Assembly: GCA_035295165.1 (NCBI GenBank)
Contig: DATGJN010000085.1
Span: 34,707-98,706, forward strand
Length of the DNA: 64,000 bases
Reading direction: 5' to 3'
From: a bacterium
Lineage (GTDB): Bacteria > Sysuimicrobiota > Sysuimicrobiia > Sysuimicrobiales > Segetimicrobiaceae
Made by a program: the position numbers and the translations under genes. The notes beneath the pieces were generated by a model. The model had not been told where the DNA came from. It saw nothing but the letters and a program-made list of their open reading frames with translations, and ran no database searches. Position 1 is the first letter of the stretch. The number at the start of each line of letters is the position of its first letter. Positions 4,498 through 64,000 of the stretch are shown here, piece by piece.

Positions 4498-4609
4498 CGG
4501 CCCGGGTCGGGTGTCGGCGACGTACCGGCATCGGGCGCAGGGACTGCGAGCGCGTCTCTGGCACAACCCACCGGATCCCGTCGGGGCGGCACGCCAGGGG
4601 GGGCCTGGG

Positions 4610-5524: not shown

Positions 5525-5535
5525 GTCGCGGGGCG

Positions 5536-6042: not shown

Positions 6043-6113
6043 CGCCCGCCTCCCCCAGAACTTCCGCCACGGGCCATCCGAGCGGTCGGCGGCCCGTTTC
6101 GTTCCTGCGCCTC

Positions 6114-10966: not shown

Positions 10967-11115
10967 CGTCGTTGTTGTGAACATCCCTACGCGACGCGCG
11001 CCCCGCGCCGACGTCGCGTGGCCGCGCGGAACGTACCGTCTGTCGCCCGACGAACTGGGGCACACACTGCAAGGGCAGGCCGATACACGGTGAGAAACGA
11101 GGCGCGAACGGGCCG

Positions 11116-14100: not shown

Positions 14101-15288
14101 GCGGGCAGGCCCAAGAACGAGGCGATCGCGGAGATCCGCCAGTGCGCCAGCACGCAGTTCGATCCCGCCGTCGCCGACGTCTTCTGCCGTGTGATCGAGC
14201 ACGCCGACGCGGCGATCGTCCCGGTCGCGGAGATGGCCTCTGCGGGCAATGAGTCCATCCGATCACTGGCCTCGGCGGTGGTACAGCCGTTTCAGCAAAA
14301 CCGGCACCTCCGCCGCGCCGCCCCGGCGGTGGCGGACGTGGCACAACGACTCCTGCGGCCCCTCGATCTCACGGCCGTGCTCGAGGCGATCCTGAGCCAG
14401 ATCCAGAGTGTGTTCGGGTATCCGATCTGCGGCGTGCTTCTGCTGGATGAGCGGACCCGAGAGCTGCGCGTGGCCGCCCAGCGCGGGTTCGATCCCGATG
14501 TCGTGACCGGACTGCGGCTCCGGGTCGGCGAGCAAGGGATCGCCGGCTGGGTCGCGCAGCGGGGACGGTCCTACTACGCGCCTGACGTTACCCTGGATTC
14601 TCTGTACGTCGCGGGGTCATCGTCCGCGCGGTCGAACGTCGCGTTTCCGCTGATGGTCGACGACCGGACAATCGGTGTCCTGGACGTCGAGAGCCCGAGC
14701 GTCGACGCGTTCCCGAAGGAAACCCGCGAATTCCTCGCGACGTTCGCGGTCCTCGCCGCGCTTGCCATTCTCCGCGCCCAACGGGACGAGAATCTCAGCG
14801 AGCTCGCGCGCACCGACGGGTTGACCGGCCTCGCGAACCATCGGGCGATCCTGCAGGATCTCGAGCGCGAGATCGTACGCGCCCGCCGCAGCGGCCACCC
14901 CGTGTCGGTGGCGCTCGTAGAGATCGATGGGTTCAAGCGGCTCAACGACAAGTTCGGTCACCTGCAGGGCGATCTGGTGCTGCGGGAGGTGGCCGACGTG
15001 CTCCGCCGGCATTCTCGCGCCGGCGATCTCGTCGGGCGGTTCGGCGGCGACGAGTTCGTGCTGGTGCTGCCCCAGGCGACAAAGAACGTGGCCGCACAGA
15101 TCGTGGAGCGAGTGCGGGGGCACGTCGAGGAGATCCGCGTCCCGGGCAACGAGCGCACGTTGAGCGTCAGCATCGGACTGGCCGCCCATCCCGCCGACGG
15201 CGACGATCCGGACGGTCTTCTGGAATCGGCAGATCACGCCATGTATCAGGCGAAGCGCAACGGCGGCAACCGCGTGTGCGTAGCCTAA
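11116..15288 (+). CDS. multidomain c-di-GMP signalling protein: REC-like – 3x PAS – 2x GAF – HD-GYP – GAF – GGDEF
   Basis: A 1390-aa ORF. N-terminal receiver-like fold (LIVGD...DVIVVDDG...CVVKP). Three PAS blocks. GAF domains. An HD-GYP domain (HDIGK ... HHERWDGTGYP). A C-terminal GGDEF domain with intact RxxD I-site and GGDEF motif (RAGDLVGRFGGDEF). Confidence 0.9.
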   Translation: MKTPSTDDEHNPRTPLSMLIVGDRPTDSALVVDKLRQHGFDVEWHRVEHESDYLARLSPELDVIVVDDGLLQVDARRAIALAKDRNLDVPIVVAVAALGDEAEALVSRWGATDCVVKPHLPLLAHVVERARTHRRLRHEQTQLRRRLDAFVENSYDALALIGDDLRVRYASPSIRRVMGIELNDFVGHEILEFVHADDHEQVRRAYDALRRDPTRTQASLIRHRHGDGSWRLVEITRRNLLAEPSVRAIVVNFRDVTERETAQNALQQSASRYRGLFERVPIGLYLTRTNGTFVDANPAFLEMLGYPDRATLRGINATSLYVDPGARERLTEALERDGVVTGWESALRRRDGTILWGRANVRAVHDPTGEGDGLEGAIIDITDQRAAETALRDNEQRFRALIEHGFDIILLLDRRGIIQYASPSAERVLGYEPDALLGRDRLELVHPDDRAELRHRFASLVEHPDGQAFTQARLRHRDGTWRWTESVATNLLHDSSVQAVVANYRDITVRKLAEEENQRRAAHLETINAIVAAAVSARDLGQLLEHTVDLTLHALGHTMGGIWIGTEHRGSGMSADVGPSILRAAASLGQVLDASEAVADARAPDAHGLASVMKGLGILAWIAAPIRAGGRAIGGIAVASPVPCAWRPDETALVETVGRQIGEAAERLDLLQRAERRTAELLAVTDLGRRLREAASVTDMYPIIVEHAMQVLASEHGALALLNEDEESFTRVYARGVSTEPPGSTFPAAGSRSMEVVRTGIPRVAKDIGEEQRPPWMDHFSYRDFGPYLVVAVRSEAESIGTLTLLRRKTGQDRSFSEDDVRVLMGIAEIAGSAIRRGRLQQSLEQSYIEMVLALARAVDARDSYTGDHSERIAARAVATARALGCTDDETQTIHWAALLHDIGKLSVPDQILKKPSPLTAAEWDVMREHPTIGEQILRPIERMHGVAAIIRHHHERWDGTGYPDRLQGDEIPLGARILAVADAYSAIIDTRAYDAGRPKNEAIAEIRQCASTQFDPAVADVFCRVIEHADAAIVPVAEMASAGNESIRSLASAVVQPFQQNRHLRRAAPAVADVAQRLLRPLDLTAVLEAILSQIQSVFGYPICGVLLLDERTRELRVAAQRGFDPDVVTGLRLRVGEQGIAGWVAQRGRSYYAPDVTLDSLYVAGSSSARSNVAFPLMVDDRTIGVLDVESPSVDAFPKETREFLATFAVLAALAILRAQRDENLSELARTDGLTGLANHRAILQDLEREIVRARRSGHPVSVALVEIDGFKRLNDKFGHLQGDLVLREVADVLRRHSRAGDLVGRFGGDEFVLVLPQATKNVAAQIVERVRGHVEEIRVPGNERTLSVSIGLAAHPADGDDPDGLLESADHAMYQAKRNGGNRVCVA

Positions 15289-51247: not shown

Positions 51248-52006
51248 TCAGTCCGCTGCCCCACCGGGCTTGGGACGGCTCCGCGACTCAATCTCCGACA
51301 GAGGAAGCACGCTGTCGTCCTCCGCCAGTCCGCCTTGCTTGTACAGGGCACGCCGCTTCTGTCGGTCGCCCTCGGCGACCTCCCGGGCGTACGTCGCCAC
51401 CTGGTCCGCGAAGTCGCGCGGCACGACCACGACGCCGTCACCGTCCGCGACCACCACGTCCTCCGGTTTGACCAGCACACCTCCGCAGTTGATCGGCACC
51501 TGCTCCGCGTTGAACTCAAGGCGGGCCGGCCGGATGGTCTTCTCGATACGCGCGCAGTACACGCGGCATCCTTGTCGGATCAGCTCGTCGGTGTCTCGTG
51601 CTCCCCCGTTCGTCACCACGCCAACCGCGCCGCGAAGAATCCAGCTGAGCGTGTTGTTGGATCCCGCGAAGCCGACGCGAGTGTCGGCGCCATCGATGAC
51701 GACGACATCGCCAGCGTGGATTTCCATCTGCGGCCCCGAAGCCAACTGTCGGTACCAATCGCGGATGAACGCCCGCATCTCATCCGGGGTGCGTGCCGTG
51801 ACCGGGTGATTCGTCGGCACAAACCGAAGCGTGTGCGCGAACCCCACGAAACGGTGTGTGAGATTCACGACGTCCCGCACCAGTGGACGGATCGCCGGAT
51901 CCATGAGTCCGATATCCTGATAGCCGAGCATGTCCAATCCGTCCGCAACATCCGTCACGCGGAGTTCCCGATACAGGTCGAGCAACCGCTGCCGTTCCGG
52001 ATCCAT
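51248..52006 (-). CDS. RraA family protein (HMG/CHA aldolase / oxaloacetate decarboxylase-like), paralog 1
   Basis: GDVVVIDG...GxxDxxE-like blocks (RGAVGVVTNGGARDTDE); 252 aa. Confidence 0.8.
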   Translation of the reverse strand: MDPERQRLLDLYRELRVTDVADGLDMLGYQDIGLMDPAIRPLVRDVVNLTHRFVGFAHTLRFVPTNHPVTARTPDEMRAFIRDWYRQLASGPQMEIHAGDVVVIDGADTRVGFAGSNNTLSWILRGAVGVVTNGGARDTDELIRQGCRVYCARIEKTIRPARLEFNAEQVPINCGGVLVKPEDVVVADGDGVVVVPRDFADQVATYAREVAEGDRQKRRALYKQGGLAEDDSVLPLSEIESRSRPKPGGAAD

Positions 52007-52153
52007 GTGGCGCTCCCTCCCACTGTTGTGAGCGTCTCTCGCTGTTCGACTACCGTTGAGACACGTGTGCGGTTGGTGAGGTTTCACTTGGCGGCATCGC
52101 GGTCAGCGGCTCGATCACGAGCGCGGAACGCCTCAACGCCAGCTGCCTCTTGT

Positions 52154-53017
52154 TCACTTGATCCCTGTCGTCGCGATGCCCTCGGTCAGCAACCTCTCGA
52201 AGAACAGGAAGATCACGAAGATCGGAACGAGGCTGAGCGCCGACATCGCGAAGAGCGGGCCCCATTGGGATGCCTCGTTGAGGTCGAGGAACAAGTTCAA
52301 ACCCAGGGGAACCGTATACATCACCGGTTTGGTCAAGTAGAGCAACGGCCCCAGGAAATCGTTCCACGAGTTGATGAACGTGAAGATCCCCGTCGTCGCC
52401 ATCGCCGGCATGGACAGCGGGACGACAATGCGCAAGAACACCTGCCAATGGCCGCAGCCGTCGATGATGGCGGCCTCGTCGATTTCCCTCGGCAGCCCGC
52501 GGATGAACTGAACCATCAAGAAGACGAAGAACCCGTCGACCGCAAGCAAGCGGGGCACCACCAGCGGCAGATAGGTATTCAACCATCCGAAACGGAGGAA
52601 GAGGATGTACTGGGGAATGATCAGCACCTGGTAGGGTAGCATGATGGTCAACAGCATAATGGCGAAGAGGGTACCTCGAAGCCGGAACTGCAGCCGCGCG
52701 AAGGCATACGCCGCCATCGTGCACGAGCACACGTTCCCGAGCACCGCGACGCAGGCGATGATCAGGGAGTTCGCGAACAAGCGGCTGAACGACAGGTTCT
52801 GCATCGGATACCAGCCGCGTTGATAGTTGGCAAACGTCCACACCTTCGGCAGCAGCCCGACGTTCACGAAGATCTGAGCGCTCGGTTCGAACGACGCGCC
52901 CACCATCCACAGCACCGGGTAGAGCGTCGCCACCAGCAGGGCGATGAGCAGCACGTGGCGGGCCCCTCCGCCCAGGGTGGCGGTGAGGTGTCTCCGAGGG
53001 ATCGCGGCGGTATCCAT
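52154..53017 (-). CDS. carbohydrate ABC transporter permease (MalG-like)
   Basis: EAA loop region (IDEAAIIDGCGHWQVFLRIVVPL); 6 TM helices. Confidence 0.9.
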   Translation of the reverse strand: MDTAAIPRRHLTATLGGGARHVLLIALLVATLYPVLWMVGASFEPSAQIFVNVGLLPKVWTFANYQRGWYPMQNLSFSRLFANSLIIACVAVLGNVCSCTMAAYAFARLQFRLRGTLFAIMLLTIMLPYQVLIIPQYILFLRFGWLNTYLPLVVPRLLAVDGFFVFLMVQFIRGLPREIDEAAIIDGCGHWQVFLRIVVPLSMPAMATTGIFTFINSWNDFLGPLLYLTKPVMYTVPLGLNLFLDLNEASQWGPLFAMSALSLVPIFVIFLFFERLLTEGIATTGIK

Positions 53018-53023
53018 CCTGCC

Positions 53024-54031
53024 TCAGTCCGCGTAGTGCACCCAGAAACGCGCGCTCAGGAATGCCGCCCCAGTCAACACCGCGATCATGACCACCAGTA
53101 CCCATGCCATGGCCGCCGCATACCCCATGTCGTAGTTCACGAAACCCTGCTGATAGAGATAGAGGGCGTAGAGAAGCATCGAATCGGCGGGGCCGCCGGT
53201 GCCATTGCTGATCACGTAGGCGGAGGTGAAGACCTGAAATGCTCGGATCAGACCCAAAACCGTGTTGAAGAAGATCACCGGCGACAGCATGGGGATCGTG
53301 ATCTGGAGAAGCTGTCGCCACCGTCGCGCGCCGTCCACCGCAGCGGCCTCATAGAGGTCCTGGGGAATTTGACGAAGGCCGGCCAGGAAGATGATCATTG
53401 TCGCCCCGAACTGCCAGACATTCAGCAACACCAACGTATAGAGCGCGGTGCCCGGGCTCCCGATCCAACTCTGTCCCGTGATGTGAACCAGGGCGAGTAC
53501 ATGGTTCAGCATGCCGTCGATGCCGAACACCTGGCGCCACAGGACGGCAAGTGCAACGCTTCCGCCCAGCAGGGAAGGAAGATAGAACAGCCCCCGATAC
53601 AGGGTCAGGCCGCGGAGGCCGCGGTTCAGCACCAGCGCCAAGGCCAACGAGATCACGAGCACGGAGGGCACTGAGATCGCGACGTAGAGGACCGTCACGA
53701 CCAGCGACTGCAGGAAGCTGGGGTCCCCTGCTATCATCCGCCGATAGTTCGTGAGTCCCGTCCATGAGGGGGCGGACAACAGGTCGTAGTGCGTGAACGA
53801 GAGCCCGAGGGACGCCAGGAGCGGGCCGACCGTGATCCCGACGAGCCCGAGTAACCACGGAGCCAAGAAGAGATACGCGATACGGTCATCCCGACGGCGG
53901 GGCTTCGCCCCCGGGTGGCGCGGCCCCGCCGGCATCATCGCCGACTCGTGCCCGACCGACATGTTCGCATCTCGGCGAATGGGGGCCATGCGTCCCACCC
54001 GGGCGTGCGATGGATCACCCATCTCCGCCAT
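53024..54031 (-). CDS. carbohydrate ABC transporter permease (MalF-like)
   Basis: EAA loop (LYEAAAVDGARRWRQLLQITIPM); 6 TM helices. The start is uncertain. Confidence 0.85.
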   Translation of the reverse strand: MAEMGDPSHARVGRMAPIRRDANMSVGHESAMMPAGPRHPGAKPRRRDDRIAYLFLAPWLLGLVGITVGPLLASLGLSFTHYDLLSAPSWTGLTNYRRMIAGDPSFLQSLVVTVLYVAISVPSVLVISLALALVLNRGLRGLTLYRGLFYLPSLLGGSVALAVLWRQVFGIDGMLNHVLALVHITGQSWIGSPGTALYTLVLLNVWQFGATMIIFLAGLRQIPQDLYEAAAVDGARRWRQLLQITIPMLSPVIFFNTVLGLIRAFQVFTSAYVISNGTGGPADSMLLYALYLYQQGFVNYDMGYAAAMAWVLVVMIAVLTGAAFLSARFWVHYAD

Positions 54032-54035
54032 ATAC

Positions 54036-55442
54036 CTAGCGTATGGCCGCGTTGGTCTCGGAGAAAAAGGCCTTCACCGCTGACTCGACGCTCGCTTTCC
54101 CGAAGGCCACATTCGAATAGTTCCTCGCCAGGGCCTGGACCGCCGCGCTGTAGTTGGCCGGAAAGTCGACGATGGTGGGCTTGCCGGTGATGACCCCCCT
54201 GATGAACTGGAGGTAGTCCTTTGTCGCCGGCAACGCAGCACCCGCCTCGGCGATTTGCGCGTCCAACAACTTCGTCCCGGTCACAGCCCCGTTGTCCGAG
54301 GCGTACGCCTTCGCTCCGTCGGGGTCGTTGGTGAAGAAATTGATCCATGCCGCGGCGGTGGAGACGTTGGTACAGTTGGCCGCGATGGACAACCCGTTGT
54401 TCACGAGCACCTGACCGTTCCCGCTCGGACGCCTGGGGAAAGCGGCCAACTTCAACGTCCCCTTGCCGCTCGCCGTGAGCGGGGCCTGGATTGCGGCCAA
54501 CTGGTTCGCCGGCCGCTCGTCGAACATTGCTCTTCCGAGCGTGAGGTACCCCTGCTGGTTATCGCTCGGCTCCTCCTGCATCATGGCCGCCGTCACCGTG
54601 GCCCCCGCCTTGCGGAGGGTCTCCCACCAGTTCCAGTACTGCACCATGAGCTGTTCGGGAAAGCCCAGCTGCCCGCTCTTGGTGAAGACAGGTTGGCCAT
54701 GAGATGCGACCCACGCCCACAACAGGGAGTCGTCGCTGCCGCGCAGGTCGCTGGCGTACACACCGGACGGCAGCCTGTCCTTGGCGGCCAACAGCCACTG
54801 CTGCAGCTGGTCCCAGGTCATGTCCGCTGGCAACGGCGCGAGCCCTGCCTTCTCGGCCATCGTGGCGTTGTACATCCAGTTGTTGGTCGCCGACCCCGTC
54901 GGCACCATGTACAGCTTCCCGTCCCGGCCCCGACCGGAGTCTACGATTACCTTGGGAATTCCGGACACGTCAATCGCCCCTGACTGAACCAGGTCATCCA
55001 GCGGGCGCAGGGCTTGCCGGGTGTCGTACACGGTGAGGTACCGGACCTGCATTTGCGGCACGTCCGGAAGGTTATGCGCCGCGGCCTCGACCGTGAGCTT
55101 CTCCCAGTAGGTGTTGAAATCACCCACCGGCTGCCCGTCCAGCTTCGCCTTGGGGAACTTCTGCTGAAACAGCGCCATCACCGCCTGGGTTTTCCGGCTC
55201 CGCTCCCCGGTCCCCCACCAGGAGAACCCGATCTCGCCTTCGACCGGCCCTTTCCCGGGCGCCGGCGCGGCGTACCCGCTCTGCTCACCCTGAACTTCCT
55301 GGAGCAGGGCCGTCAGCCCGCCACTCGCTCCCAGCATGATGACCCCTTGACGCGCCAGAGCGAGAAAATCACGACGGCTTCGGACGGTACGGACCGCAGG
55401 ACGGCTCACATCGGTGGAGATTGATCGATCCATCGCGGGCAC
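54036..55442 (-). CDS. sugar ABC transporter substrate-binding protein (family 1), TAT/lipoprotein-type signal
   Basis: SRRDFLALARQGVIMLGASGG signal peptide; 468 aa with a solute-binding fold. Confidence 0.85.
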   Translation of the reverse strand: MPAMDRSISTDVSRPAVRTVRSRRDFLALARQGVIMLGASGGLTALLQEVQGEQSGYAAPAPGKGPVEGEIGFSWWGTGERSRKTQAVMALFQQKFPKAKLDGQPVGDFNTYWEKLTVEAAAHNLPDVPQMQVRYLTVYDTRQALRPLDDLVQSGAIDVSGIPKVIVDSGRGRDGKLYMVPTGSATNNWMYNATMAEKAGLAPLPADMTWDQLQQWLLAAKDRLPSGVYASDLRGSDDSLLWAWVASHGQPVFTKSGQLGFPEQLMVQYWNWWETLRKAGATVTAAMMQEEPSDNQQGYLTLGRAMFDERPANQLAAIQAPLTASGKGTLKLAAFPRRPSGNGQVLVNNGLSIAANCTNVSTAAAWINFFTNDPDGAKAYASDNGAVTGTKLLDAQIAEAGAALPATKDYLQFIRGVITGKPTIVDFPANYSAAVQALARNYSNVAFGKASVESAVKAFFSETNAAIR

Positions 55443-55568
55443 CTCCCGAAGAATCTTCGCTGATCCTACCCCTGAGCTCCCATCGCACCCGCACGTCGCC
55501 GCTGATCGAGTCCGGCGATTCCGCCGGCCTCTCCGGCCGCCTCCTCAGCGGCCGTACGCGGCGCCGCC

Positions 55569-56294
55569 TCACAAGCCTGCGTAGAAGGCTTCCATTTCTT
55601 CCACCGCGACGGTCTCGTCCAATGGCATCCCCAACTGCTGATAGAGCTCACGCCGCTTCACGGCGTCGTCGATCAAGATGCCTTTGGCGATCCGGACCAC
55701 GTCAAGTGCGACCTCCGCAGGGACGACGATGCACCCGTCGCCGTCACATCCGATGATGTCGCCCGGACGGACCAGGGCCCCGCCGCAGGCGACCGGCTCG
55801 TTCACCCCGGCAAACGTCACGCGCCCCGGGATGATGGTTCGACCTCGCCCGCGACACGCGACCGGGGTCTTCTGCAAGATCAGTTCATCGGTATCCCGTG
55901 CATATCCGTCCGTAACCACCCCGACCGCGCCCTTGGCGATCAGTCCAAGCGAGTTGTTCGACCCCCAGATGCCGGTCTCGGGGCATCCATCCGTTGCCGT
56001 GACCACCACGCAGCCTCGTCGCACGACACTGCCGATTTCGTTGCGTCCGTGCTCGGCAAACCACGTTGCGTGCGACCGGATCGCTCCCTCGGCCGAAAGC
56101 TTTGGCATGCGCACATTGGCCGGGAGCGCCCTCACCGTCACAGCCGGCCCCCAGAATCGCATGCCCTGCCAGAGCGGCCTGATGCGTTCGTCCATCAGTG
56201 TCAAATCCTGTCTGTCCACGGCGTCCAGGGCATCGACCACGTCGGTGATTCGGAGGTACTTGAACTTGCTGGCCAGTTCATACATGTCGGTCAC
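55569..56294 (-). CDS. RraA family protein, paralog 2
   Basis: RraA fold blocks (GAVGVVTDGYARDTDE); 241 aa. Confidence 0.8.
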   Translation of the reverse strand: MTDMYELASKFKYLRITDVVDALDAVDRQDLTLMDERIRPLWQGMRFWGPAVTVRALPANVRMPKLSAEGAIRSHATWFAEHGRNEIGSVVRRGCVVVTATDGCPETGIWGSNNSLGLIAKGAVGVVTDGYARDTDELILQKTPVACRGRGRTIIPGRVTFAGVNEPVACGGALVRPGDIIGCDGDGCIVVPAEVALDVVRIAKGILIDDAVKRRELYQQLGMPLDETVAVEEMEAFYAGL

Positions 56295-56469
56295 GCTCTG
56301 CTACACCCCCTGTCTGCTCCGAGTAGGTAGCGCTACACCCGTGATGCGGCGTCGATCGATGAACGCACCTGCCTCCGTTAGAAGCGCCACGGCCACGATC
56401 CGCAGTCATCGTTGCTCAGGGCCGACGTGCCGTACATGTCGACCTGCCTCGTTGTGAGTGGCGTCCACG

Positions 56470-56934
56470 CTATGCACCCGTGTTGCCGAAGCCGTTTCGC
56501 TCCATTTGGCGAATCTTCTCCACGCGCCTCGCGGCATCTTCGTCCCCGCTGAATCGGGCCTGCAAGTACGTGCTGACCAGATCAACCGCCAGCCACGATC
56601 CCACGATCTTTGCTCCGATGCACATGACGTTGGCATCGTCATGTTCGACGCACTGGTGGGCGGTATGACCATCGTGGCAGATCGACGCACGAATTCCCCG
56701 AATCTTGTTTGCCGCGATCACCACACCGGCTCCCGTCCCCGCCACCAGGACCGCGCGGTCGGCGTTCCCGTCGAGGACGTCCGCGCAGACCCTCCGAGTG
56801 ACGTCGGGAAAGTCCACCGGCGTCTCATCGTAGCTTCCATGGTCGGTCACATCATGACCGAGATCCTTGACGGCCTGGATGATCACCGTCTTCAGCCGAA
56901 AGCCTGCGTGATCACCGCCGATCGCGACTCTCAT
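56470..56934 (-). CDS. rpiB: ribose-5-phosphate isomerase B / LacAB-type sugar-phosphate isomerase
   Basis: MRVAIGGDHAGF...GTGAGVVIAANK...CHD motifs; 154 aa. Confidence 0.85.
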   Translation of the reverse strand: MRVAIGGDHAGFRLKTVIIQAVKDLGHDVTDHGSYDETPVDFPDVTRRVCADVLDGNADRAVLVAGTGAGVVIAANKIRGIRASICHDGHTAHQCVEHDDANVMCIGAKIVGSWLAVDLVSTYLQARFSGDEDAARRVEKIRQMERNGFGNTGA

Positions 56935-57024
56935 GCCGGGCTCCTTTCCTGAGTCCCGCCGCGGACCACCGGATTCACCGCCATCCGTTGCGGTGCCCTC
57001 ACCGCGTTCCGCTGCCCTGGGGTG

Positions 57025-57750
57025 TCAGCGTTCCGCGCGGCGCGGTTCGCCGCCTCCATCGAGCCCGTACGACAGGATGTCCTCCAGGGCGCTGGATATG
57101 TGCTGATGCATGAGCTGCCCGGCATCGGCGCCGTCGCGCGCTGCAATCAGTTCGATGAGCCGGTGATGTTCCTCGATCGCGCGCACCGGCCGTCCAATGA
57201 TACGGATGGTTCGCGCCACCAGCATCTCGCTCTGCGATTGAAGCTGGCCCATCACGGCGGCCAGGTACGAGTTCCGAGCCGCGCGCATGATGGCCGCGTG
57301 CAGGTCACGGTTATAGACTCGGTAGGCGTCCATGTCGCCGGCGGCCAGCGCGGCTTCCCCCACGGACTGGTGTTCTCGCAGCCACGTGATCTCGTCTTCC
57401 GTGATGCGCGCGCACGCCAGGCGGACGCTGAGACTTTCGAGCGCGGCCCGAATCTCGTAGAGCTCCTTGATCTCCTGCTTGGTATGCTCCCGCACAAACC
57501 AGCCCTGGTTCGGTCTCTTGATCGCCAGTCCATCGCTCTCGAGGCGCTGCATCGCTTCCCGAACCGGCGTCGTGCTCACTTCAAGCTGCCGCGCAATGGC
57601 TTCCGGGCGCAGCGGCGCTCCAGGCTCGATCCGCCTGCTGACGATACTGTTCAGCAGCGCCTGGTAGACTCGTGCGCCCAGCGGCAGGCTGTTCGACAAC
57701 GGCTCAAGCGCCTGGGACTGGCTGCCGTTGGCGGGCTTACCACTTGGCAT
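57025..57750 (-). CDS. GntR family transcriptional regulator (FadR/FCD subfamily)
   Basis: N-terminal winged HTH (LRPEAIARQLEVSTTPVREAMQRLESDGL) plus an FCD C-terminal domain. Confidence 0.85.
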   Translation of the reverse strand: MPSGKPANGSQSQALEPLSNSLPLGARVYQALLNSIVSRRIEPGAPLRPEAIARQLEVSTTPVREAMQRLESDGLAIKRPNQGWFVREHTKQEIKELYEIRAALESLSVRLACARITEDEITWLREHQSVGEAALAAGDMDAYRVYNRDLHAAIMRAARNSYLAAVMGQLQSQSEMLVARTIRIIGRPVRAIEEHHRLIELIAARDGADAGQLMHQHISSALEDILSYGLDGGGEPRRAER

Positions 57751-58591
57751 AGACGGCCTTTACGTCAGTGAAGACGTCTCTCGCGGTGGGGCCGATGGAG
57801 AACGCTCCCTGTCCAGATTCCCTTCGGCCGCCGAACGGCACGCACGCCTGGCTTGCCGTTCCGTGGCTCAGGTGGATGATCCCAGCGTCGATTCCCGCAG
57901 CGAACTTGTGTGTCAACTCCGTGCGCGAGGTGAACGCCGCCGCCAGACCGTACCGCGTGTCGTTCGCAACCGCGATGGCTTCATCCGCGTCCCGTACGCG
58001 GATCACCGGCAGGATGGGCCCGAAGATCTCCTCGCGCGCCAGGGCAGACATGACGAACACGGCGGAGCGGGGTGTCAGCGACGCCGGCTTGAACACCACG
58101 GTATTGCCGTACGCGATGGCCGGCGCGATCTTCCGCACGGGGGTGATGACCGGAACATTCCAGGGGTTGATGGTTGCGACCACCCCGAGCGGCTCCAGGA
58201 CGGTGTGGCAGGAAACGCTCGTGCGCTCACTCGGAAATGTCTGTCCCAAGGGACATCTGGCCTGGCCGGCCATGTACCGCGCCACCACCACGGCCCGGGA
58301 CACCTTGCCCACGGATTCGCTGAGCGCTTTTCCCTGTTCCAGCATGACGACCTCGGCAAGATCGCTCTTCGAATCCTCCAGGAGCTGCGCGGACCGGTAG
58401 AGTGGCGCACCCCGCTGCGGTCCTAGCGTTCCCGCCCAACCAGGGAATGCGGCAGCGTCGACGTGAGCCGGTCCGGATTGGGGGAACTGGCCCAATTCCT
58501 GTTCGGGATGGGCGGGGCTATGGGTCGCATAGTCGCTCCCCGTCCCGGGTGGCACCCAGTCTCCGGCAATAAAATTAGCGTACGGCTGCAT
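57737..58591 (-). CDS. aldehyde dehydrogenase family protein carrying a ~200-aa in-frame internal deletion (probably non-catalytic or a pseudogene)
   Basis: The ALDH N-terminal half (EPLGVVATINPWNVP, GNTVVFKPASLTP) joins directly to the C-terminal EEIFGPIL...YGLAAAFTS...PFGG. The catalytic ELGGKSP / Cys region and the Rossmann GxTxxG are missing. 284 aa versus the usual 480-500. Confidence 0.7.
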   Translation of the reverse strand: MQPYANFIAGDWVPPGTGSDYATHSPAHPEQELGQFPQSGPAHVDAAAFPGWAGTLGPQRGAPLYRSAQLLEDSKSDLAEVVMLEQGKALSESVGKVSRAVVVARYMAGQARCPLGQTFPSERTSVSCHTVLEPLGVVATINPWNVPVITPVRKIAPAIAYGNTVVFKPASLTPRSAVFVMSALAREEIFGPILPVIRVRDADEAIAVANDTRYGLAAAFTSRTELTHKFAAGIDAGIIHLSHGTASQACVPFGGRRESGQGAFSIGPTARDVFTDVKAVYAKW

Positions 58592-58600
58592 GCGCGTCTC

Positions 58601-59764
58601 TCACTGCAGCGTCTGCCGGAGGATCCGCGTCATGTCGTCGACGCCCGTGCGGCGCGGGTTCACCGGGACGTTGCCGCTCGTCATGGCCTCTTCAACCACC
58701 GGGCGGACATGCTCCGCGCGCACTCCGTAGCCCGACAGGTCCTTCGGCATGCCGATATCGCGCGCCAACTCCCGCACGGCGCTGACCGCGCGGGCGGCCG
58801 CCTCCACACGCGAAAGATGCTCGACCCGTTCGCCGAGCGCGCGCGCCACATCCACGAACCGGTCCGGCGCAGCCACATAGTTGAACTCCATGACCGCCGG
58901 CAGTGTAACCGCCAGCACAATGCCGTGCGGCACGTGGAGGTCCCAGCTTCCGAGCGGCATCGCCAGGGCGTGCGCCAGCCCGAGACGCGTCGGGTTCATG
59001 GCGATGCCGGCCATGGTGGCGGCCAGCATCATGGCGTAGCGCGACTCGCACTTGCGCCCGTTGAGGGTGGCGCTGCGCAGGTGCCGGCCGATCAGCTCGA
59101 TGGCCCGCAGCGCAAGCGACGCCGAAATCGGTTGGCAGGCGTTGTTGGTGTAGCACTCAACGGCATGGGCGAGCGCGTCCATACCGGTGGCCGCGGTCAG
59201 CGTCGGCGGCAGTCCCAACGTCAGGTCGGGATCGCAGAGAGCCACCGCCGGATAGATGAGTGTGCTGCCGATCGCCACTTTTGTGCCGCTGCCCTCGTCC
59301 GTGAACACCGCCCACAGCGTGACCTCGCTCCCCGTGCCGGCCGTTGTGGGGATGGCGATCATCGGAAGCGGCCGGTTACGGATCTTGTGGAGGCCGATGT
59401 ACGACAGCGCGGGTCCTGGGTTCGTGGCGAGCGCCGCCACCGCCTTGGCCGTGTCGAGCGAGCTGCCACCGCCGACGCCGATCACGACATCGGCGGCGCG
59501 TCGCTTGAACTCGGCGGTGGTCTCGTCGATCAGGACCGACCCCGAATCCGGCTTCACGCGGTCGCACACATCGAATCCGATGGCGGCGTCTTTGAGGATG
59601 CGCATGACGTCTTCAAGAATCCCGGCCGCCGCGAGCCCCGGATCGGTCACCACGAAGGCGCGGGTGCCGCCCAAGGCTTTGATCCGCTCCGGAAGCGTCC
59701 GCAGCATGCCGCAGCCGAAATGTATGTCGGTGGGCACCGGGAAGAAATTAACCGGGATTTCCAT
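58601..59764 (-). CDS. iron-containing alcohol dehydrogenase
   Basis: The internal start is MEIPVNFFPVPTDIHFGCG. Motifs GGGSSLDTAKA and the His-rich metal site (LAHAVECY, HGIVLA) are present. Confidence 0.85.
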   Translation of the reverse strand: MEIPVNFFPVPTDIHFGCGMLRTLPERIKALGGTRAFVVTDPGLAAAGILEDVMRILKDAAIGFDVCDRVKPDSGSVLIDETTAEFKRRAADVVIGVGGGSSLDTAKAVAALATNPGPALSYIGLHKIRNRPLPMIAIPTTAGTGSEVTLWAVFTDEGSGTKVAIGSTLIYPAVALCDPDLTLGLPPTLTAATGMDALAHAVECYTNNACQPISASLALRAIELIGRHLRSATLNGRKCESRYAMMLAATMAGIAMNPTRLGLAHALAMPLGSWDLHVPHGIVLAVTLPAVMEFNYVAAPDRFVDVARALGERVEHLSRVEAAARAVSAVRELARDIGMPKDLSGYGVRAEHVRPVVEEAMTSGNVPVNPRRTGVDDMTRILRQTLQ

Positions 59765-59879
59765 TATCCGTGTCTGAACACCTTGTGTTGAAGGAGTCCA
59801 TCTGGCTCTTCGGGGACGAGTGTGACCGACGGCCCCATGAAAGGCTGTTCGGGCCCGTCCGAAACCCCCAATCCCGGGC

Positions 59880-61410
59880 ATGGTCGCGCTGGCCACCGAT
59901 TTCTCAGACACGTCCCCCTCGGCCTCCTTCTCGTCCTTGTTGGCCGCGACGATCGCCGGCTGCTACCCTGCGGGCCCCGGCAGCATCCCAAGCCGCCGCA
60001 CGATCGCCCCGAACAGCTGCGGTGTCAGGTGCCCCTCCGCCAACAGCAACCAGTAGTATCGCGCGTGTTTCACGAGCCGGCCACCCGTCTTCATCAGACG
60101 CTGCTGCAGACTCGTCAGCGACCACGTATCAATCCGTTTCGGCAGCCCGAACCGCCGCCACAAGTTGCCCAAGTTGTACGCGATCACGCTCAGCCACAGC
60201 CGCACCTCGTTCGCCCGGAACCGGTGGCAGCTCAGCCGCGTCATCTTCACCGCCTGCTTGCCTTCCTTGATCCACTGCTCCGCAGTCCCGCGCTTATTGT
60301 AGAACCGCACCACCGCGCGGCTGTCCGCCTCCAGAGTCGTCACGATGAACCCTACTCGCGGGAACAGTTCCTCGCAGTGGAACTCGATCTTCGCCACCAC
60401 TCGCCGCGCGATCTTCCAACTCGCGGCCTGGTACCGGAAGCTCTTGTACCGGACCACCGGCTTGTGACTGGGGCGTCCGACCGGCCGCGTGAGCAACTCC
60501 GCGATGGCCCGCTCCAATGTGTCGTTCGAGGGGATGCGAATAGCGTACTTTGCGTTCCGAGTCTCCAGGGCTTCGTAGAGCTCCGGCTTGGCAAAACCGG
60601 CATCGGCCCGGACGACCACGTCCTTGCCCTCCCGCTGCTGCCGCTCGAGCTCGGGCAGCAACACCTGGTCCCACTCCTCGGCGCTATGAACGTTGCCCGG
60701 CCGCAACTTCGCCGCCAGACAGTCGCCCTCCCGATTGAACAGCAGCAGCGGATGATAGCAGGTCGACTCAAAGTGCCCGTTATAGGCGCTCTGCTCCTGT
60801 TGGCCGTAGACGGGGATCTCGGTACTATCGATATCGAGCACCACCCGCTGCGGGGTGTCCATAGGATCCACCTTCGCGATCAACTCCCGGTTGATCGCAG
60901 CCAGCCCAGCGAGGTTCTCATCTTGGGTCAGCAGCTCTGTCTCGAAGGAGTGCGCCCGGGACGTCAGAGCGGCCCCGCGCTCCCAGAGCTGCTCGGCCCC
61001 GATCAGCCGGAAAGTTGGATCCTGGGAGAGGCGTTCAGCATCGTTCACGTCCTCGTACCCCGCCAATCGGCGGTAGACCGATTGCCGGACCAAGTCGGCG
61101 AGCGGGAACTGCGTGTTCGTGCCCCTCGGATCGGTCAAATGCTGCGCGATGAGTTCACTGAAGCCCAACCGCTCGTCCAGTTCGCGCACGAGGATGAGCC
61201 CGCCGTCGGAGGTGACCCGCGAGCCTTGGAATTCGATGCGGAGTCTGGGGTTAAACGAGAGCTGAAAGGGCTGATTTTGTGCTTCACCCATAGGATGCAG
61301 ACCTCTGCGGCGTCGCCATCGCGCTCAAACCCGCACAGATCAAGACGTTCGACGCATCTCCACAGTTTCCGTTCCGTCGTCACATCGGAAATCCGGGATT
61401 AAAGGACTGC
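59880..61410 (-). mobile_element. IS1380-family insertion sequence (ends approximate)
   Basis: The transposase gene is flanked by about 100 nt of non-coding DNA, wedged between the ADH promoter and the Ldh_2 gene. Clear terminal inverted repeats could not be defined by eye (weak AATCCCGG / CCGGGATT match near 59870 and 61391). Confidence 0.5.
59963..61291 (-). CDS. IS1380-family transposase (DDE)
   Basis: 442 aa. Blocks are colinear with ISEcp1/IS1380 transposases (VTSDGGLILVRELD, LDIDSTEIPVYGQQE, RADAGFAKPELYE, FYNKRGTAEQWIKEGK). Confidence 0.85.
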   Translation of the reverse strand: MGEAQNQPFQLSFNPRLRIEFQGSRVTSDGGLILVRELDERLGFSELIAQHLTDPRGTNTQFPLADLVRQSVYRRLAGYEDVNDAERLSQDPTFRLIGAEQLWERGAALTSRAHSFETELLTQDENLAGLAAINRELIAKVDPMDTPQRVVLDIDSTEIPVYGQQEQSAYNGHFESTCYHPLLLFNREGDCLAAKLRPGNVHSAEEWDQVLLPELERQQREGKDVVVRADAGFAKPELYEALETRNAKYAIRIPSNDTLERAIAELLTRPVGRPSHKPVVRYKSFRYQAASWKIARRVVAKIEFHCEELFPRVGFIVTTLEADSRAVVRFYNKRGTAEQWIKEGKQAVKMTRLSCHRFRANEVRLWLSVIAYNLGNLWRRFGLPKRIDTWSLTSLQQRLMKTGGRLVKHARYYWLLLAEGHLTPQLFGAIVRRLGMLPGPAG

Positions 61411-61426
61411 CCGGCGTCGATGGTCA

Positions 61427-62515
61427 TCAGGAGTAGCTCTCCTGTTCCAGGCAAGCGGGAAACTCGACATCCACGCGGCGGCCGAGATCCACCAGTTGCC
61501 GCACCACTTCGTCCGCGAGCGGCAGCCCGGACTCGCGGAAGCGGGCCTCCGTGTCGAACTCCACCTCCCCCGGAGCGAGTACGCGCGGAACGCCCGCGGC
61601 GGGCGGCGAGTTCTTGAGCATGCGCAGGATCGTGTCCATGCGCCGCGCGAACTCCGGCGCGGGCAGGAACAGATCCGTCCGCAGCGCGATGAACGCGTGG
61701 CCGAGGCCTTGCACCGCCTTCACGTTTTCGAGCGTGTTCAAATAGAGCGCAAAGGACGCGCCCGTCAGCACGCCGGACAGGATGTCGATGATAAACGAAA
61801 TGGCCGACCCCTTAGGACCGCCGAACGGCAGCACCACGCCGGCCAGCGCGGCTCGCGCGTCCGTGGTGGGTCGCCCTTCCGCGTCGATGGCCCACCCTTC
61901 CGGGATCGGCAGGTTGCGCTCGGCGGCGATGATGATCTTGCCCCGCGCCACCACGCTCGAGGACGCATCGAAGAGCAGCGGCCGTTCCTCGCCCGCGGGA
62001 ATGCCGACGGCCAACGGGTTGGTTCCGAGAATCCGCCCTCGTCCGCCGAAGGCCGCCATGTTGGGCGGGGCGTTGGACACCGCGCAGCCAATGTACCCTC
62101 GCCGGATCGCCTTGTCCACGTAGAACGCGGCGGCCCCGAAATGGTTGCTGCCGCGGACGCCCACGTAACCGATGCCGCTGGTTGCAGCAAGACGGAGCGC
62201 CTCGTCCATCGCGCGCGAACCGACCACCGGACCCAGGCCGTTGTCACCATCCACCAGCGCCACGGCCGCGTAGCGTGACTCCACACGGATCACCGGCCTG
62301 GCCTTCACGACCTTTGCCTCGAGCCGCCGCACGTAGACCGGCAGACGGATCAAGCCGTGCGAATCCACACCGCGCAGTTGGGCCATGACCAGACATTCCG
62401 CTACTTCGCGGGCGTCGTGCGCGGAAACATCGAGCCGCTCCAAGACGGCGCGCGAATAGGTGACCAGATCGTCCGACCGGAACCGCTGGGGCTTGTCGCC
62501 GGCGGTGTCGCTCAC
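61427..62515 (-). CDS. Ldh family oxidoreductase (malate/L-lactate dehydrogenase family 2)
   Basis: 362 aa with the Ldh_2 blocks (HGLIRLPVY, NHFGAAAFY, GTNPLAVG). Confidence 0.85.
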   Translation of the reverse strand: MSDTAGDKPQRFRSDDLVTYSRAVLERLDVSAHDAREVAECLVMAQLRGVDSHGLIRLPVYVRRLEAKVVKARPVIRVESRYAAVALVDGDNGLGPVVGSRAMDEALRLAATSGIGYVGVRGSNHFGAAAFYVDKAIRRGYIGCAVSNAPPNMAAFGGRGRILGTNPLAVGIPAGEERPLLFDASSSVVARGKIIIAAERNLPIPEGWAIDAEGRPTTDARAALAGVVLPFGGPKGSAISFIIDILSGVLTGASFALYLNTLENVKAVQGLGHAFIALRTDLFLPAPEFARRMDTILRMLKNSPPAAGVPRVLAPGEVEFDTEARFRESGLPLADEVVRQLVDLGRRVDVEFPACLEQESYS

Positions 62516-63159
62516 GTTCCGGAAACTCCGGGCTTGGCCAGGGGCGGCAGGTGCAGCAGTTCGATGGTGGTCTTGCCCTTGTTCAATTCCGCCATGATCT
62601 CCGCCTCGCGCAGGCGACGCCGCGCGGCGGCCTCCAGGATCTGTTCCGCCCGCTCCTTCGCCACGATCACGATGCCATCCGAATCGCCGAGCACGATATC
62701 ACCGGGACGTACGATCAGACCACCGAACTCAATCGGGATGTCGAGCGAGCCGAAACGCTCCTTCGTGCACGAACCGATCGCGAGGCCGCGGGCAAAAACG
62801 GGAAACCGACGCTCGGCGATGGCCTCGATATCCCGAGCCGCGCCGTCGATCGCCAGGCCCGCGACGCCTCTCGCCTGCGCGGCCACGGTGAGGACTTCCC
62901 CCCACGCGCCGGTTCGCAGATACCCGCCCAGAGTGGCTACGATGATCATTCCCGGCCCGGCCGCCGCCACGGCATGGTGCAGCATCAGGTTGTCCCCGGG
63001 CGGGCATACCACCGTGCACGCGATCCCGCACATGCGCGCGCCCGGCCACGCAGGGCGGATCGCGGGATCCACCATACCCTGGTGGTCCGCAGCCTCATAC
63101 AGTGTGGCCGGATCGAATCCGATAAACTGGTCGACGACGCGTTCTGCGCCGATCGTCAT
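62512..63159 (-). CDS. RraA family protein, paralog 3
   Basis: 215 aa; its start overlaps the upstream gene by 4 nt; RraA fold blocks are present. Confidence 0.8.
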   Translation of the reverse strand: MTIGAERVVDQFIGFDPATLYEAADHQGMVDPAIRPAWPGARMCGIACTVVCPPGDNLMLHHAVAAAGPGMIIVATLGGYLRTGAWGEVLTVAAQARGVAGLAIDGAARDIEAIAERRFPVFARGLAIGSCTKERFGSLDIPIEFGGLIVRPGDIVLGDSDGIVIVAKERAEQILEAAARRRLREAEIMAELNKGKTTIELLHLPPLAKPGVSGT

Positions 63160-64000
63160 TTGTGTGCTCCGCGGGTCGACGGTCCTCGCCTGCTTTCGGG
63201 GTGATGCAACTCGACACCGGCTAGCCCGGCCAGGTACTGCGCCGCGGCAGCAAAGTCCGCGTCGCCCTTTCCCGCGCCGCTCGCGGCCGAAAACACCTGG
63301 CCCACGATCGACGTCAGCAACAGCGGAACCCCCTGGGCACGAGCCGAATCGAGCGCGAGATTCACATCCTTCTTCATCAGGTCGAGTTTGAACCCCGGCT
63401 GGAACGACCCTTCCAGAAGAAAGCCAGGCAGCCGCGCATCCATCATCCTAGAATAGCCTGACGAGTCTTTGATGACGTTATAGAGAGTCGCTGGATCGGC
63501 GCCGCACCTGACCCCTAGCGCAAACGCTTCCCCGATCATGGCCAGATGAACCGCGGCCATCATCTGGTTGACGATCTTGACCACTTTGCCCTGACCTACC
63601 GGTCCGACATGCACGATCCGGCTCCCCATAGTTGCCAACAGCGGGCGGCAGTATTCTAGGAGGTCGGGATCGCCACCAACCATGATCGTGAGTGTTCCGG
63701 TCGCGGCACCCGGCGTCCCGCCGCTCACAGGCGCGTCGAGAACGCGACCGCCGACCGACGTGAGCGCGCGTTCGACGTCCTGCAACGTGAGCGCGGTACA
63801 AGTGGTCATATCGATCAGGATCTTCCCCTTGGAGAAGCCCCTCAACAAGCCATCGGAGCCGAAAACCGTCTCTCGGAGCTCGGCATCCGCGGGCAGAATG
63901 GTGACAATCGTATCCGTTGCGCGGGCTATTTCGGCGGGCGAGTGGAGAATGGTAGCGCCCAACTGGGCGAGTACGTCTGCGGGTGCGCGGCGCTTATGGA
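63156..64000 (-). CDS. 3-hydroxyisobutyrate / tartronate-semialdehyde dehydrogenase family NAD(P)-oxidoreductase (5' end beyond window)
   Basis: The frame stays open to nt 64000. The visible part aligns from the TILP region through the catalytic Lys block (GQGKVVKIVNQ) to the C-terminus. The N-terminal Rossmann motif lies outside the window. Confidence 0.8.
   Translation of the reverse strand, partial: HKRRAPADVLAQLGATILHSPAEIARATDTIVTILPADAELRETVFGSDGLLRGFSKGKILIDMTTCTALTLQDVERALTSVGGRVLDAPVSGGTPGAATGTLTIMVGGDPDLLEYCRPLLATMGSRIVHVGPVGQGKVVKIVNQMMAAVHLAMIGEAFALGVRCGADPATLYNVIKDSSGYSRMMDARLPGFLLEGSFQPGFKLDLMKKDVNLALDSARAQGVPLLLTSIVGQVFSAASGAGKGDADFAAAAQYLAGLAGVELHHPESRRGPSTRGAHK

Follow-up and report, generated by a model that had tools for sequence, protein, structure and literature searches.

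Why should a bacterium keep three RraA-like genes side by side with a sugar importer and a set of dehydrogenases, and on which substrate might their products act? The locus that raises this question occupies the right-hand end (positions 51248-64000) of a 64,000-nucleotide stretch of contig DATGJN010000085.1 (assembly GCA_035295165.1, positions 34,707 to 98,706 of the forward strand) from a bacterium of the family Segetimicrobiaceae in the phylum Sysuimicrobiota; this whole stretch is referred to here as the window. From its letters, the original prediction had proposed a linked catabolic island, perhaps for a sugar acid. According to our analysis, the island is a genuine, conserved unit with enzymatic function and probably acts on an acidic sugar. 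With a probability of roughly 60%, we regard the locus as a partly inactivated copy of a conserved, uncharacterised cluster for the uptake and non-phosphorylative breakdown of an acidic sugar or of a small glycan bearing one. The association of related clusters with glycosidases of family GH140 and the decay of three genes of the window copy go beyond what had been predicted.

Gene content was assigned by selection of open reading frames (ORFs) guided by the G+C content of third codon positions (GC3), combined with Pfam and NCBIfam scans. In DNA of about 66% G+C, the RraA-rich genes form a single minus-strand array, given here in the order of transcription (Fe-ADH, iron-containing alcohol dehydrogenase; ALDH, aldehyde dehydrogenase; IS, insertion sequence; ABC, ATP-binding cassette; HMG/CHA, 4-hydroxy-4-methyl-2-oxoglutarate/4-carboxy-4-hydroxy-2-oxoadipate):

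63156 to beyond 64000, minus strand: HIBADH-like beta-hydroxyacid dehydrogenase (NAD_binding_2 and NAD_binding_11 domains), first gene of the core operon
62512-63159, minus strand: RraA3, LigK/HMG-CHA-aldolase-like (PF03737, E 2e-40)
61427-62515, minus strand: Ldh_2-family 2-hydroxyacid dehydrogenase (PF02615, E 2e-115)
61398-61427, minus strand: original first 10 codons of the Fe-ADH gene (MTIDAGQSFN), read directly from the sequence and from the orthologue in locus L090
59752-61397, minus strand: IS1380-family element of 1646 bp (DDE_Tnp_1_4, 400 bits; inverted repeats, target duplication)
59963-61291, minus strand: IS1380 transposase (DDE_Tnp_1_4)
58601-59764, minus strand: Fe-ADH body from codon 11 onward (Fe-ADH and ADH_Fe_C domains), called as 387 aa in the parent contig
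57737-58591, minus strand: ALDH remnant, alpha-ketoglutarate-semialdehyde-dehydrogenase-like (BLASTP against the L090 orthologue)
57025-57750, minus strand: GntR/FCD regulator (GntR and FCD domains), last gene of the core operon
56470-56934, minus strand: RpiB/LacAB-family isomerase (PF02502, E 5e-46)
55569-56285, minus strand: RraA2 (PF03737, E 5e-25)
54036-55433, minus strand: family-1 (CUT1-type) solute-binding protein (solved relatives; twin-arginine signal SRRDFLAL)
53024-54022, minus strand: ABC permease (BPD_transp_1)
52154-53017, minus strand: ABC permease (BPD_transp_1)
51248-52006, minus strand: RraA1 (PF03737, E 1e-22)

The gene families named in the original prediction were all recovered here at the positions given there, among them the three RraA genes, and so was the lack of an ABC ATPase gene in the window. 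In the domain scans, longer ORFs stood for five of the genes: 51248-52087 for RraA1, 55569-56294 for RraA2, 54036-55442 for the binding protein, 53024-54031 for one permease and 58601-59911 for Fe-ADH. Compared with their orthologues, the HIBADH, RraA3, Ldh_2, GntR, RraA2, transporter and RraA1 genes are full length. The window end cuts the HIBADH-like gene, which spans L001 9072-10004 in the parent contig (a metagenome contig of 110.6 kb, ENA ERZ27279680, k141_1870033) and encodes 310 aa there; its 5' end, its promoter and a putative operator are located past the window end. The GntR/FCD gene and the end of the ALDH gene share 14 nt, an overlap that recurs in the orthologues. The HIBADH-like protein matches tartronate-semialdehyde reductase best in NCBIfam (256 bits, cut-off 397), and the Ldh_2 protein reaches no NCBIfam equivalog cut-off, its best match being L-sulfolactate dehydrogenase (272 against 500).

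How far this arrangement is conserved can be read from related contigs. Relatives of RraA3 with 58-88% identity were collected by a metagenome scan and, for three contigs, by exact look-up, and were searched with the window proteins; synteny was counted in the 51 RraA3-centred loci of at least 4 kb. Fe-ADH genes occur in 38 of them, HIBADH in 37, ALDH in 34, Ldh_2 in 31 and transporters of the major facilitator superfamily (MFS) in 29, followed by RraA1-like genes (26), GntR (24), TonB receptors (18), RpiB (12) and GH140 (about 12). Where enough downstream DNA is available, the figures rise to 18/18 for Fe-ADH and for ALDH, 15/18 for GntR and 14/18 for Ldh_2, and where enough upstream DNA is available, to 15/17 for HIBADH, 13/17 for the TonB receptor, 12/17 for RraA1-like genes, 11/17 for MFS, 9/17 for RpiB and 8/17 for GH140. 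The ALDH of the alpha-ketoglutarate semialdehyde (KGSA) dehydrogenase type stands two genes downstream of RraA3 in all 18 loci with sufficient flank. Typically, a GH140-RpiB-MFS unit is divergent from a second unit with one or two RraA1-like genes, a TonB receptor gene and the series HIBADH-RraA3-Ldh_2-FeADH-ALDH-GntR; locus L090 carries the uninterrupted operon. Since the same ordered gene set recurs across dozens of soil and sediment contigs that are independent of each other, the grouping exceeds what chance would produce. The predicted linkage thus stands, with the HIBADH-to-GntR series as conserved core and an RraA1-type gene, RpiB and a transporter added to it.

The accessory genes of these loci give first hints on the kind of substrate. 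The MFS proteins are of the D-galactonate/anion:cation symporter (ACS) anion-transporter type, and GH140 was assigned by PF13204, DUF5060 and Collagen_bind_2 domains. When the neighbouring ORFs were clustered all against all, no further recurrent family emerged except one secreted protein, and GH140 was the sole recurrent glycosidase. The secreted protein (cluster 9, about 410 aa; L148 6881-8131 and nine other loci) matches CBM_4_9 only weakly and has no relative of solved structure, and it sits just upstream of the RraA1-like/HIBADH genes where the TonB receptor is absent. Single loci hold further peculiarities: two near-identical clusters (L101 12187-14772 and L102 15053-17632) have a divergent transketolase-like gene (about 860 aa) after GntR, of note as a transketolase acts in one known apiose route, a single call of 579 aa in L089 (12326-14065) combines GntR, FCD and RraA-like domains and may be a true fusion or the product of merged adjacent genes, and a heparinase II/III-like lyase gene lies in the flank of L088.

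The three RraA-like proteins themselves fall into two kinds. All of them score above the PF03737 gathering threshold of 24.5 bits (RraA1, RraA2 and RraA3 with 81, 89 and 139 bits, respectively). RraA3 is 37% identical to the HMG/CHA aldolase from Pseudomonas putida (PDB 3NOJ; E 3e-35). The residues reported for this P. putida enzyme are Arg123, Asp124, Glu199', Asn71, His75, Lys147 and Arg195; Arg123 is catalytic, Asp124 is a metal ligand, and Asp102 and Glu199' are water-mediated metal ligands (PMC5065237). RraA3 retains N71, H75, G101, R123, D124, K147, R195 and E199 and has Glu in place of D102, while its scores stay below the cut-offs of the HMG/CHA aldolase equivalogs (NF006731, 172.7 against 179; TIGR02798, 154 against 304.5). 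Judged from these residues, RraA3 is predicted to be a LigK-like class II 2-oxoacid C-C lyase, either an aldolase or a beta-decarboxylase. One might go further and see in it a genuine LigK/GalC aldolase that belongs to the breakdown of aromatics (pathways of protocatechuate 4,5-cleavage or of gallate), with the dehydrogenases processing lignin-derived acids, given that it comes close to the LigK-type cut-off of NCBIfam and keeps the catalytic residues. However, the 51 related loci contain no ring-cleavage dioxygenase, hydratase or hydrolase of such a pathway, their contexts are related to carbohydrates (GH140, GH2, TonB receptors, sugar binding proteins), and the TIGR02798 score is only about half its cut-off; we regard the aromatic assignment as very improbable.

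RraA1 and RraA2 share 39% identity with each other; with RraA3, with 3NOJ and with FlDet, an RraA-family enzyme of Flavobacterium sp. UMI-01, the value is about 30% for both. Their scores against the HMG/CHA aldolase equivalog models (66-77 bits) are below the cut-offs. In both, the Arg-Asp dyad is kept within an ARDTDE motif, GSNN replaces the GD of the aldolases, an insertion of about 20 residues is present, Ser occupies the position of Asp102, and the equivalent of Glu199 is uncertain in the alignment; a profile alignment of the RraA2 family to the RraA3 family shows the N, H, G, R and D residues preserved. In a neighbour-joining tree, the RraA3 clade is sister to 3NOJ, RraA2 and RraA1 form separate clades, FlDet stands apart from all three, and the RraA copies that accompany RraA3 core operons group with RraA1. 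We therefore keep only part of the predicted role as 4-hydroxy-2-oxoacid aldolases: RraA3 goes with the HMG/CHA aldolases, whereas RraA1 and RraA2 form a separate, unstudied clade, for which the aldolase label is unproven because this clade is distinct and includes relatives that are exported or fused to carbohydrate-binding-like domains. An AlphaFold model of RraA2 from a 13-sequence alignment was too poor for use (mean predicted local distance difference test score, 44.8). As a side observation, PDB entry 5IR2, a chain of 222 residues deposited as 'Cellulase' for which our literature search found no publication, matches all three RraA-like proteins (E 2e-13 to 3e-6) and might bear on a carbohydrate-active role of the fold.

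The exported relatives deserve a closer look. Canonical twin-arginine (Tat) signals (SRRDFLK) were found in 38 of 80 genomic relatives of RraA2, nearly all from Bacteroidales, Acidobacteriota, Planctomycetota and Verrucomicrobiota, and RraA1-like genes that adjoin TonB receptors encode Sec-type signals. A search of the full library with the RraA1/2-type domain returned 46 representatives at E 1e-30 or better, with fusions and tandems noted in P0415, P0393, P0372, P0428 and P0483: in P0415, the domain is fused to a CBM9-like module (above the Pfam cut-off), in P0393 and P0372 to a DUF1080-like ('3-keto-disaccharide hydrolase') domain (below the cut-off), and tandem RraA-RraA proteins occur as well. 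RraA1 and RraA2 of the window have no signal peptide, and both flank an importer whose binding protein carries a Tat signal. On the simplest reading, proteins of the RraA1/RraA2 type would act early on the incoming sugar or glycan, in the periplasm of diderm bacteria and, in the organism studied here, in the cytoplasm after ABC import. In one Bacteroidales metagenome-assembled genome (MAG; L034 9797-11471), the RpiB-like neighbour (211 aa) also has an N-terminal signal, and this RraA-like/RpiB-like pair appears to function in the periplasm.

These exported and fused relatives also bear on the question of whether the proteins are enzymes at all. RraA-like proteins could be regulators of RNase E instead, as their fold is common with that of Escherichia coli RraA, and RraAS2 of Streptomyces coelicolor (5X15) is among the solved relatives. 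Yet the three paralogs reach only 23-67 bits against models of the RNase E regulator (cut-offs 136 for NF006875 and 241 for TIGR02998), their lengths of 215-253 aa differ from the roughly 160 aa of the regulator, the catalytic Arg-Asp dyad is kept, and many relatives are Tat- or Sec-exported or carry carbohydrate-binding-like fusions. A regulatory role is in our view extremely improbable, and the paralogs lie outside the non-enzymatic RraA clade, whose membership had been named as a result that would speak against the island.

Turning to the importer, the closest solved relatives of the binding protein in a PDB sequence search are 4OVJ (E 1e-27) and YesO of Bacillus subtilis (E 2e-24). The window protein has no Pfam match even at E 0.1; its orthologues carry PF01547, and those with 64-77% identity are found in loci L008, L009, L010, L020 and L023. 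Neither an LSGGQ motif nor a Walker A motif in a long ORF was detected across the 64 kb and 10 kb beyond the window end (L001). Unlinked ATPases are common in the CUT1-type importer family. A genome scan for the RraA2 family yielded 257 relatives, of which the best 80, all from MAGs, were analysed; they belong to Chloroflexota, Dormibacterota, Bacteroidales, Acidobacteriota, Planctomycetota, Verrucomicrobiota and Spirochaetota. Among them, the cassette recurs in several arrangements of RraA genes, binding protein (SBP), permeases and RpiB: RraA1-RraA2-SBP-permease-permease-RpiB in L008 (81% identity), RraA2-SBP-permease-permease-RraA1 in L006 and L019, LacI-RraA2-SBP-permease-permease-RpiB in L083, and RpiB-permease-permease-SBP divergent from RraA2 in L015 and L021; in L034, L062 and L067, RpiB adjoins RraA2. 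In addition, Tat-signal Gfo/Idh/MocA oxidoreductases were seen in twelve RraA2-family loci, and several Bacteroidales and Acidobacteriota loci hold sulfatases, a BD-FAE esterase and a Tat-signal aldo-keto reductase.

Do cassette and core operon belong together? One could argue that the RraA3 operon, the ABC/RraA cassette and RpiB are unrelated and that two or three separate modules adjoin here by happenstance, perhaps via IS activity: almost none of the 80 RraA2-centred loci has Ldh_2, HIBADH, Fe-ADH or ALDH genes nearby, gaps of 66-175 nt lie between each of RpiB, RraA2 and RraA1 and the genes next to them, and the candidate operator described below was not found upstream of the ABC block. 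We consider such a coincidence quite unlikely. The RraA3 operon is accompanied by RraA1-type and RpiB genes at the frequencies given above (12/17 and 9/17), the IS lies inside the Fe-ADH gene and not at a module boundary, and ABC, RraA1/2-type and RraA3-type genes are joined independently, with Ldh_2 or GH140, in two further genomes. One is an Anaerolineales MAG (L086) with the order RraA-RraA-SBP-permease-permease-GH140 (no signal peptide)-GH2-2-hydroxyacid dehydrogenase-RraA3-like, the other is the cultured actinomycete Tenggerimyces flavus, in which RraA-Ldh_2-GntR/FCD is divergent from SBP-RraA1-like-permease-permease. Together with the RraA1-like genes in RraA3 clusters, these two junctions support one functional system with interchangeable uptake parts. 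In T. flavus (GCA_016907715.1, L172 6123-16514), the permease genes are followed by genes for an aldo-keto reductase, a UDP-sugar dehydrogenase-like protein and a carboxylesterase.

A shared regulatory signal was found as well. Where HIBADH starts the operon, the promoter regions contain repeated GATAT motifs, and the exact palindrome ATATC-N-GATAT has 21 matches in 16 loci of the RraA3 set (0.61 Mb; fewer than one expected by chance), compared with none in 1.39 Mb of other loci. All copies that were checked fall in promoter regions, between divergent operons, for example between GH140 and the TonB receptor in L088, L118 and L126 and between RpiB and HIBADH in L089. The palindrome is located at 4504-4514 and 11987-11997 in L088, at 4553-4563 in L118, at 3443-3453 in L126 and at 7068-7078 in L089; 12 further loci have it. 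The contig of the window carries a degenerate copy, AATGTCGGATAT, at L001 9003-9014, just past the window end; it lies inside a near-consensus promoter (TTGACA-17 nt-TATACT, L001 8989-9017) about 60 nt upstream of HIBADH. ATATC-N-GATAT is probably the site of the GntR/FCD regulator, and its positions between divergent operons would place GH140, RpiB and MFS in the same predicted regulon as the core operon.

If the cluster is so well conserved, in which state is the copy in the window? We found three lesions, which mark it as a decaying copy. First, the IS1380 element is located within the island, as had been predicted; its exact place is inside the Fe-ADH gene, not between genes. It is bounded by terminal inverted repeats that match at 10/11 positions (CCCGGATTTCC and CCGGGATTTCC) and by a 5-bp target duplication TTAAT (61398-61402 and 59747-59751), and comparison with the uninterrupted orthologue in L090 (MNIDFGQSFNFFPVP) sets the insertion point after codon 10. 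The original ATG of the Fe-ADH gene overlaps the Ldh_2 stop codon (TGATG), and the end of the IS contributes an ATG at 59764, in frame with Fe-ADH, by which the reading frame regains its full length; the gene product is probably inactive or IS-dependent for expression. Outward-facing promoter-like hexamers (TCAACA-17-GATAAT) are present in the IS end at 59791-59763, in a scan that did not rise above chance. Second, when aligned by BLASTP to the 481-aa orthologue in L090, the ALDH remnant covers residues 1-192 (74% identity) and 378-481 (81%) with no alignment between, that is, an in-frame deletion has removed about 185 central residues (orthologue ~193-377), the catalytic core included. The full-length orthologue matches GucD best (497 bits, cut-off 770). 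Third, in the RpiB protein of the window (172 bits, subfamily model cut-off 135), Ala replaces the catalytic Cys (VAGTGAG), compared with [VI]CG[TS]GVG in all 19 other cluster-associated RpiB homologues, including the closest at 72% identity; a motif HQCVEHDDVN characterises this cluster-specific subtype. The organism from which the window stems has probably lost the steps of Fe-ADH, ALDH and RpiB. A DhuI-like role of RpiB in isomerising 4-deoxy-hexosulose uronate was also considered and found unsupported, as the protein scores as an ordinary member of the RpiB subfamily and weakly against the 211-aa PRK09273.

Which pathway could the intact cluster encode? An acidic substrate, as originally predicted, is likely since the MFS proteins of orthologous clusters are of anion type, the regulator is of FCD type and all enzymes act on acids or aldehydes. 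The conserved cluster contains no kinase. From this, from the features just named and from GH140 as sole recurrent glycosidase, we infer that an acidic sugar is broken down oxidatively and without phosphorylation. In our model, a CUT1-type ABC importer would take up the substrate, energised by an ATPase encoded elsewhere. RraA1 and RraA2, which retain the enolate-stabilising Arg-Asp dyad, may then catalyse an early metal-dependent, lyase- or hydratase-like step on a 2-oxoacid or enol-type sugar residue; such a step should need no nucleotide cofactor, because homologues work outside the cytoplasm in double-membraned bacteria. The RpiB-like isomerase would interconvert aldose and ketose forms of an anionic intermediate. 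Finally, in the core operon under GntR/FCD control, Ldh_2 might form a 2-oxoacid that RraA3 would cleave or decarboxylate at C3-C4, with pyruvate or a compound like it as product; the aldehyde fragments would be converted by HIBADH, Fe-ADH and ALDH.

As leading guess for the substrate source, we propose apiose-bearing pectin, either rhamnogalacturonan II (RG-II) or apiogalacturonan. Candidate substrates, named by inference only, are aceric acid, 3-deoxy-D-lyxo-heptulosaric acid (Dha) or 3-deoxy-D-manno-octulosonic acid (Kdo), and apionate. Known LigK-type enzymes split bonds beside tertiary, carboxylated carbinols, which would fit branched sugars, for instance aceric acid or oxidised apiose; as 2-keto-3-deoxy acids, Dha and Kdo are plausible candidates, too. 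We know of no pathway, or of none of this kind, for aceric acid, Dha/Kdo or apiose/apionate. A bolder proposal, which we put forward tentatively and with more doubt than conviction, sees in proteins of the RraA1/RraA2 type a novel class of carbohydrate-active enzymes that work outside the cytoplasm and depend on a metal. On keto-deoxy, enol-ether or branched acidic sugar residues, they would function as lyases, hydratases or aldolases; jointly with the LigK-like RraA3 operon, they would encode a missing route for a rare pectic sugar (aceric acid, Dha/Kdo or apiose/apionate). Our literature search returned no paper connecting RraA-like proteins with apiose or with an RraA3-type cluster, and none on RraA with an ABC transporter or an aldolase in this context.

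The only characterised RraA-family enzyme of sugar-acid catabolism that we found in the literature, FlDet of the FlDet/FlDeg system, is a 2-keto-3-deoxy-glucarate dehydratase/decarboxylase with alpha-ketoglutarate semialdehyde as product, and its gene adjoins that of a KGSA dehydrogenase (PMC8563752). Could the cluster serve an oxidative uronate pathway of this type, from unsaturated uronates via 4-deoxy-5-hexosulose uronate and 2-keto-3-deoxy-aldarate to alpha-ketoglutarate semialdehyde by an RraA-family dehydratase/decarboxylase and on to 2-oxoglutarate by ALDH? The gene neighbourhood of FlDet, the best match of the cluster ALDH to KGSA dehydrogenases, the resemblance of the binding protein to YesO, the membership of the MFS proteins in a uronate/aldarate transporter family and the lyase gene flanking L088 would all fit. 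YesO binds an unsaturated galacturonyl-rhamnose. Nevertheless, the three paralogs are only 30-34% identical to FlDet and none groups with it, no polysaccharide lyase and no GH88 or GH105 enzyme recurs near the clusters, the ALDH orthologue remains far under the KGSA dehydrogenase cut-off (497 against 770), and Ldh_2 and HIBADH would have no role in such a route. We judge this uronate pathway unlikely. A reading as a sulfo-sugar or C3-sulfonate pathway was also tried and appears unlikely: Ldh_2, Fe-ADH and HIBADH match models of sulfo-enzymes far below the cut-offs, and neither a sulfoquinovosidase nor a desulfonating enzyme recurs in the related loci.

Several observations weigh against our preferred reading of an acidic-sugar cluster fed by pectin. 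GH140 is not in the window and was found in about half of the loci with enough flank (8/17), and most of the related contigs are without taxonomic assignment. The Ser at the Asp102 position means that the chemistry of RraA1 and RraA2 may differ from that of any known member. In other genomes, the RraA2 cassette is mostly apart from the RraA3 operon, and the two may therefore serve different substrates and have only the enzyme type in common; in the window, including the region upstream of the ABC block, operator matches occur only at chance level. Apiose is neutral, whereas the type of MFS suggests an anion, and the clusters have no conserved periplasmic oxidase or kinase that would explain the whole route.

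Outside the array, little in the window can be tied to it. A connection to the dehydratases at the window start, which had been suggested in the original prediction, was rejected: these genes are 50 kb away, their products show 24-30% identity to those encoded beside RraA2 homologues, and they are absent from the conserved cluster. They belong to a separate group in positions 1-8040 with two enolase-superfamily genes, of which one is truncated at the start of the window, and genes for a Gfo/Idh/MocA oxidoreductase, RidA, an aldose 1-epimerase and an aldo-keto reductase. In nine loci (L002, L009, L010, L051, L054, L067, L071, L075, L085), MR_MLE enolase-superfamily genes stand beside RraA2-family genes. 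Neither GH140 nor an ACS-type MFS or a TonB receptor was found elsewhere in the window. Downstream of RraA1 follow unrelated ketoacyl synthase, molybdopterin oxidoreductase and glutamine synthetase genes; the ORF screen also revealed a very long ORF (10981-15288, 1436 aa) with high GC3, and a promoter and terminator scan gave nothing exceeding shuffled controls.

Why does the locus matter? Apart from four routes for apiose, little has been learnt about the bacterial use of rare sugars in the most complex pectins of plants, and a recurrent cluster that pairs glycosidases of the apiosidase family with three RraA-like proteins, without a kinase, is a testable candidate for a new one. The chemistry of the RraA fold so far comprises a regulator of RNase, a single aldolase of an aromatic pathway and a single dehydratase of sugar acids; exported Tat/Sec members and carbohydrate-binding-like fusions would, if our reading is true, widen this range. 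The interest of the locus lies in a likely new pathway and in new activities of the RraA fold within a substrate-specific locus for catabolism or glycan utilisation, and both the cultured host T. flavus and the predicted operator make experiments feasible.

Compared with known systems, the IS1380 element is ordinary: DDE_Tnp_1_4, a size near 1.65 kb, short terminal inverted repeats starting with CC and a 5-bp target duplication are usual for the family, and the copy in the window stands out only by the in-frame ATG that its end supplies to the truncated Fe-ADH gene. The importer resembles YesOPQ of B. subtilis in its related binding protein, its two permeases and the lack of a linked ATPase; it differs by low identity and by the Tat-type signal of its binding protein. 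YesOPQ is a CUT1 importer for a rhamnogalacturonan-derived disaccharide that is energised by the unlinked ATPase MsmX. With LigK/ProA/GalC of P. putida F1 (3NOJ), all three paralogs have the RraA-like fold in common, and RraA3 probably also the Mg-dependent pyruvate-enolate chemistry; yet RraA3 scores below the curated cut-offs, has Glu for Asp102 and never adjoins aromatic ring-cleavage genes, and RraA1 and RraA2 are set further apart by their identity of about 30%, by GSNN in place of GD and by the insertion of about 20 residues. FlDet is comparable in that RraA3 of intact clusters is likewise encoded near an ALDH of the KGSA-dehydrogenase type. It differs in sequence (E 1e-14 to 5e-8 to the three paralogs, on a separate tree branch) and in setting, as the clusters described here have no context of alginate or other lyases and add Ldh_2, HIBADH, Fe-ADH, RpiB and exported RraA paralogs. 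The known catabolic pathways for D-apiose, reportedly described by Carter et al. (2018, Nat Chem Biol), are said to proceed either via an apiose dehydrogenase and a lactonase, an apionate oxidoisomerase, a DUF1537 kinase and RuBisCO-like proteins or via an apulose kinase and a transketolase. Neither ApsD, ApnL, ApnO, OiaK and the RuBisCO-like protein nor the apulose kinase and transketolase are among the recurrent families of our clusters. The likeness lies in the linkage to apiose-releasing glycosidases of family GH140 and in an isomerase of the RpiB family, which is found in our clusters and, reportedly, as DerI in one of the known apiose routes.

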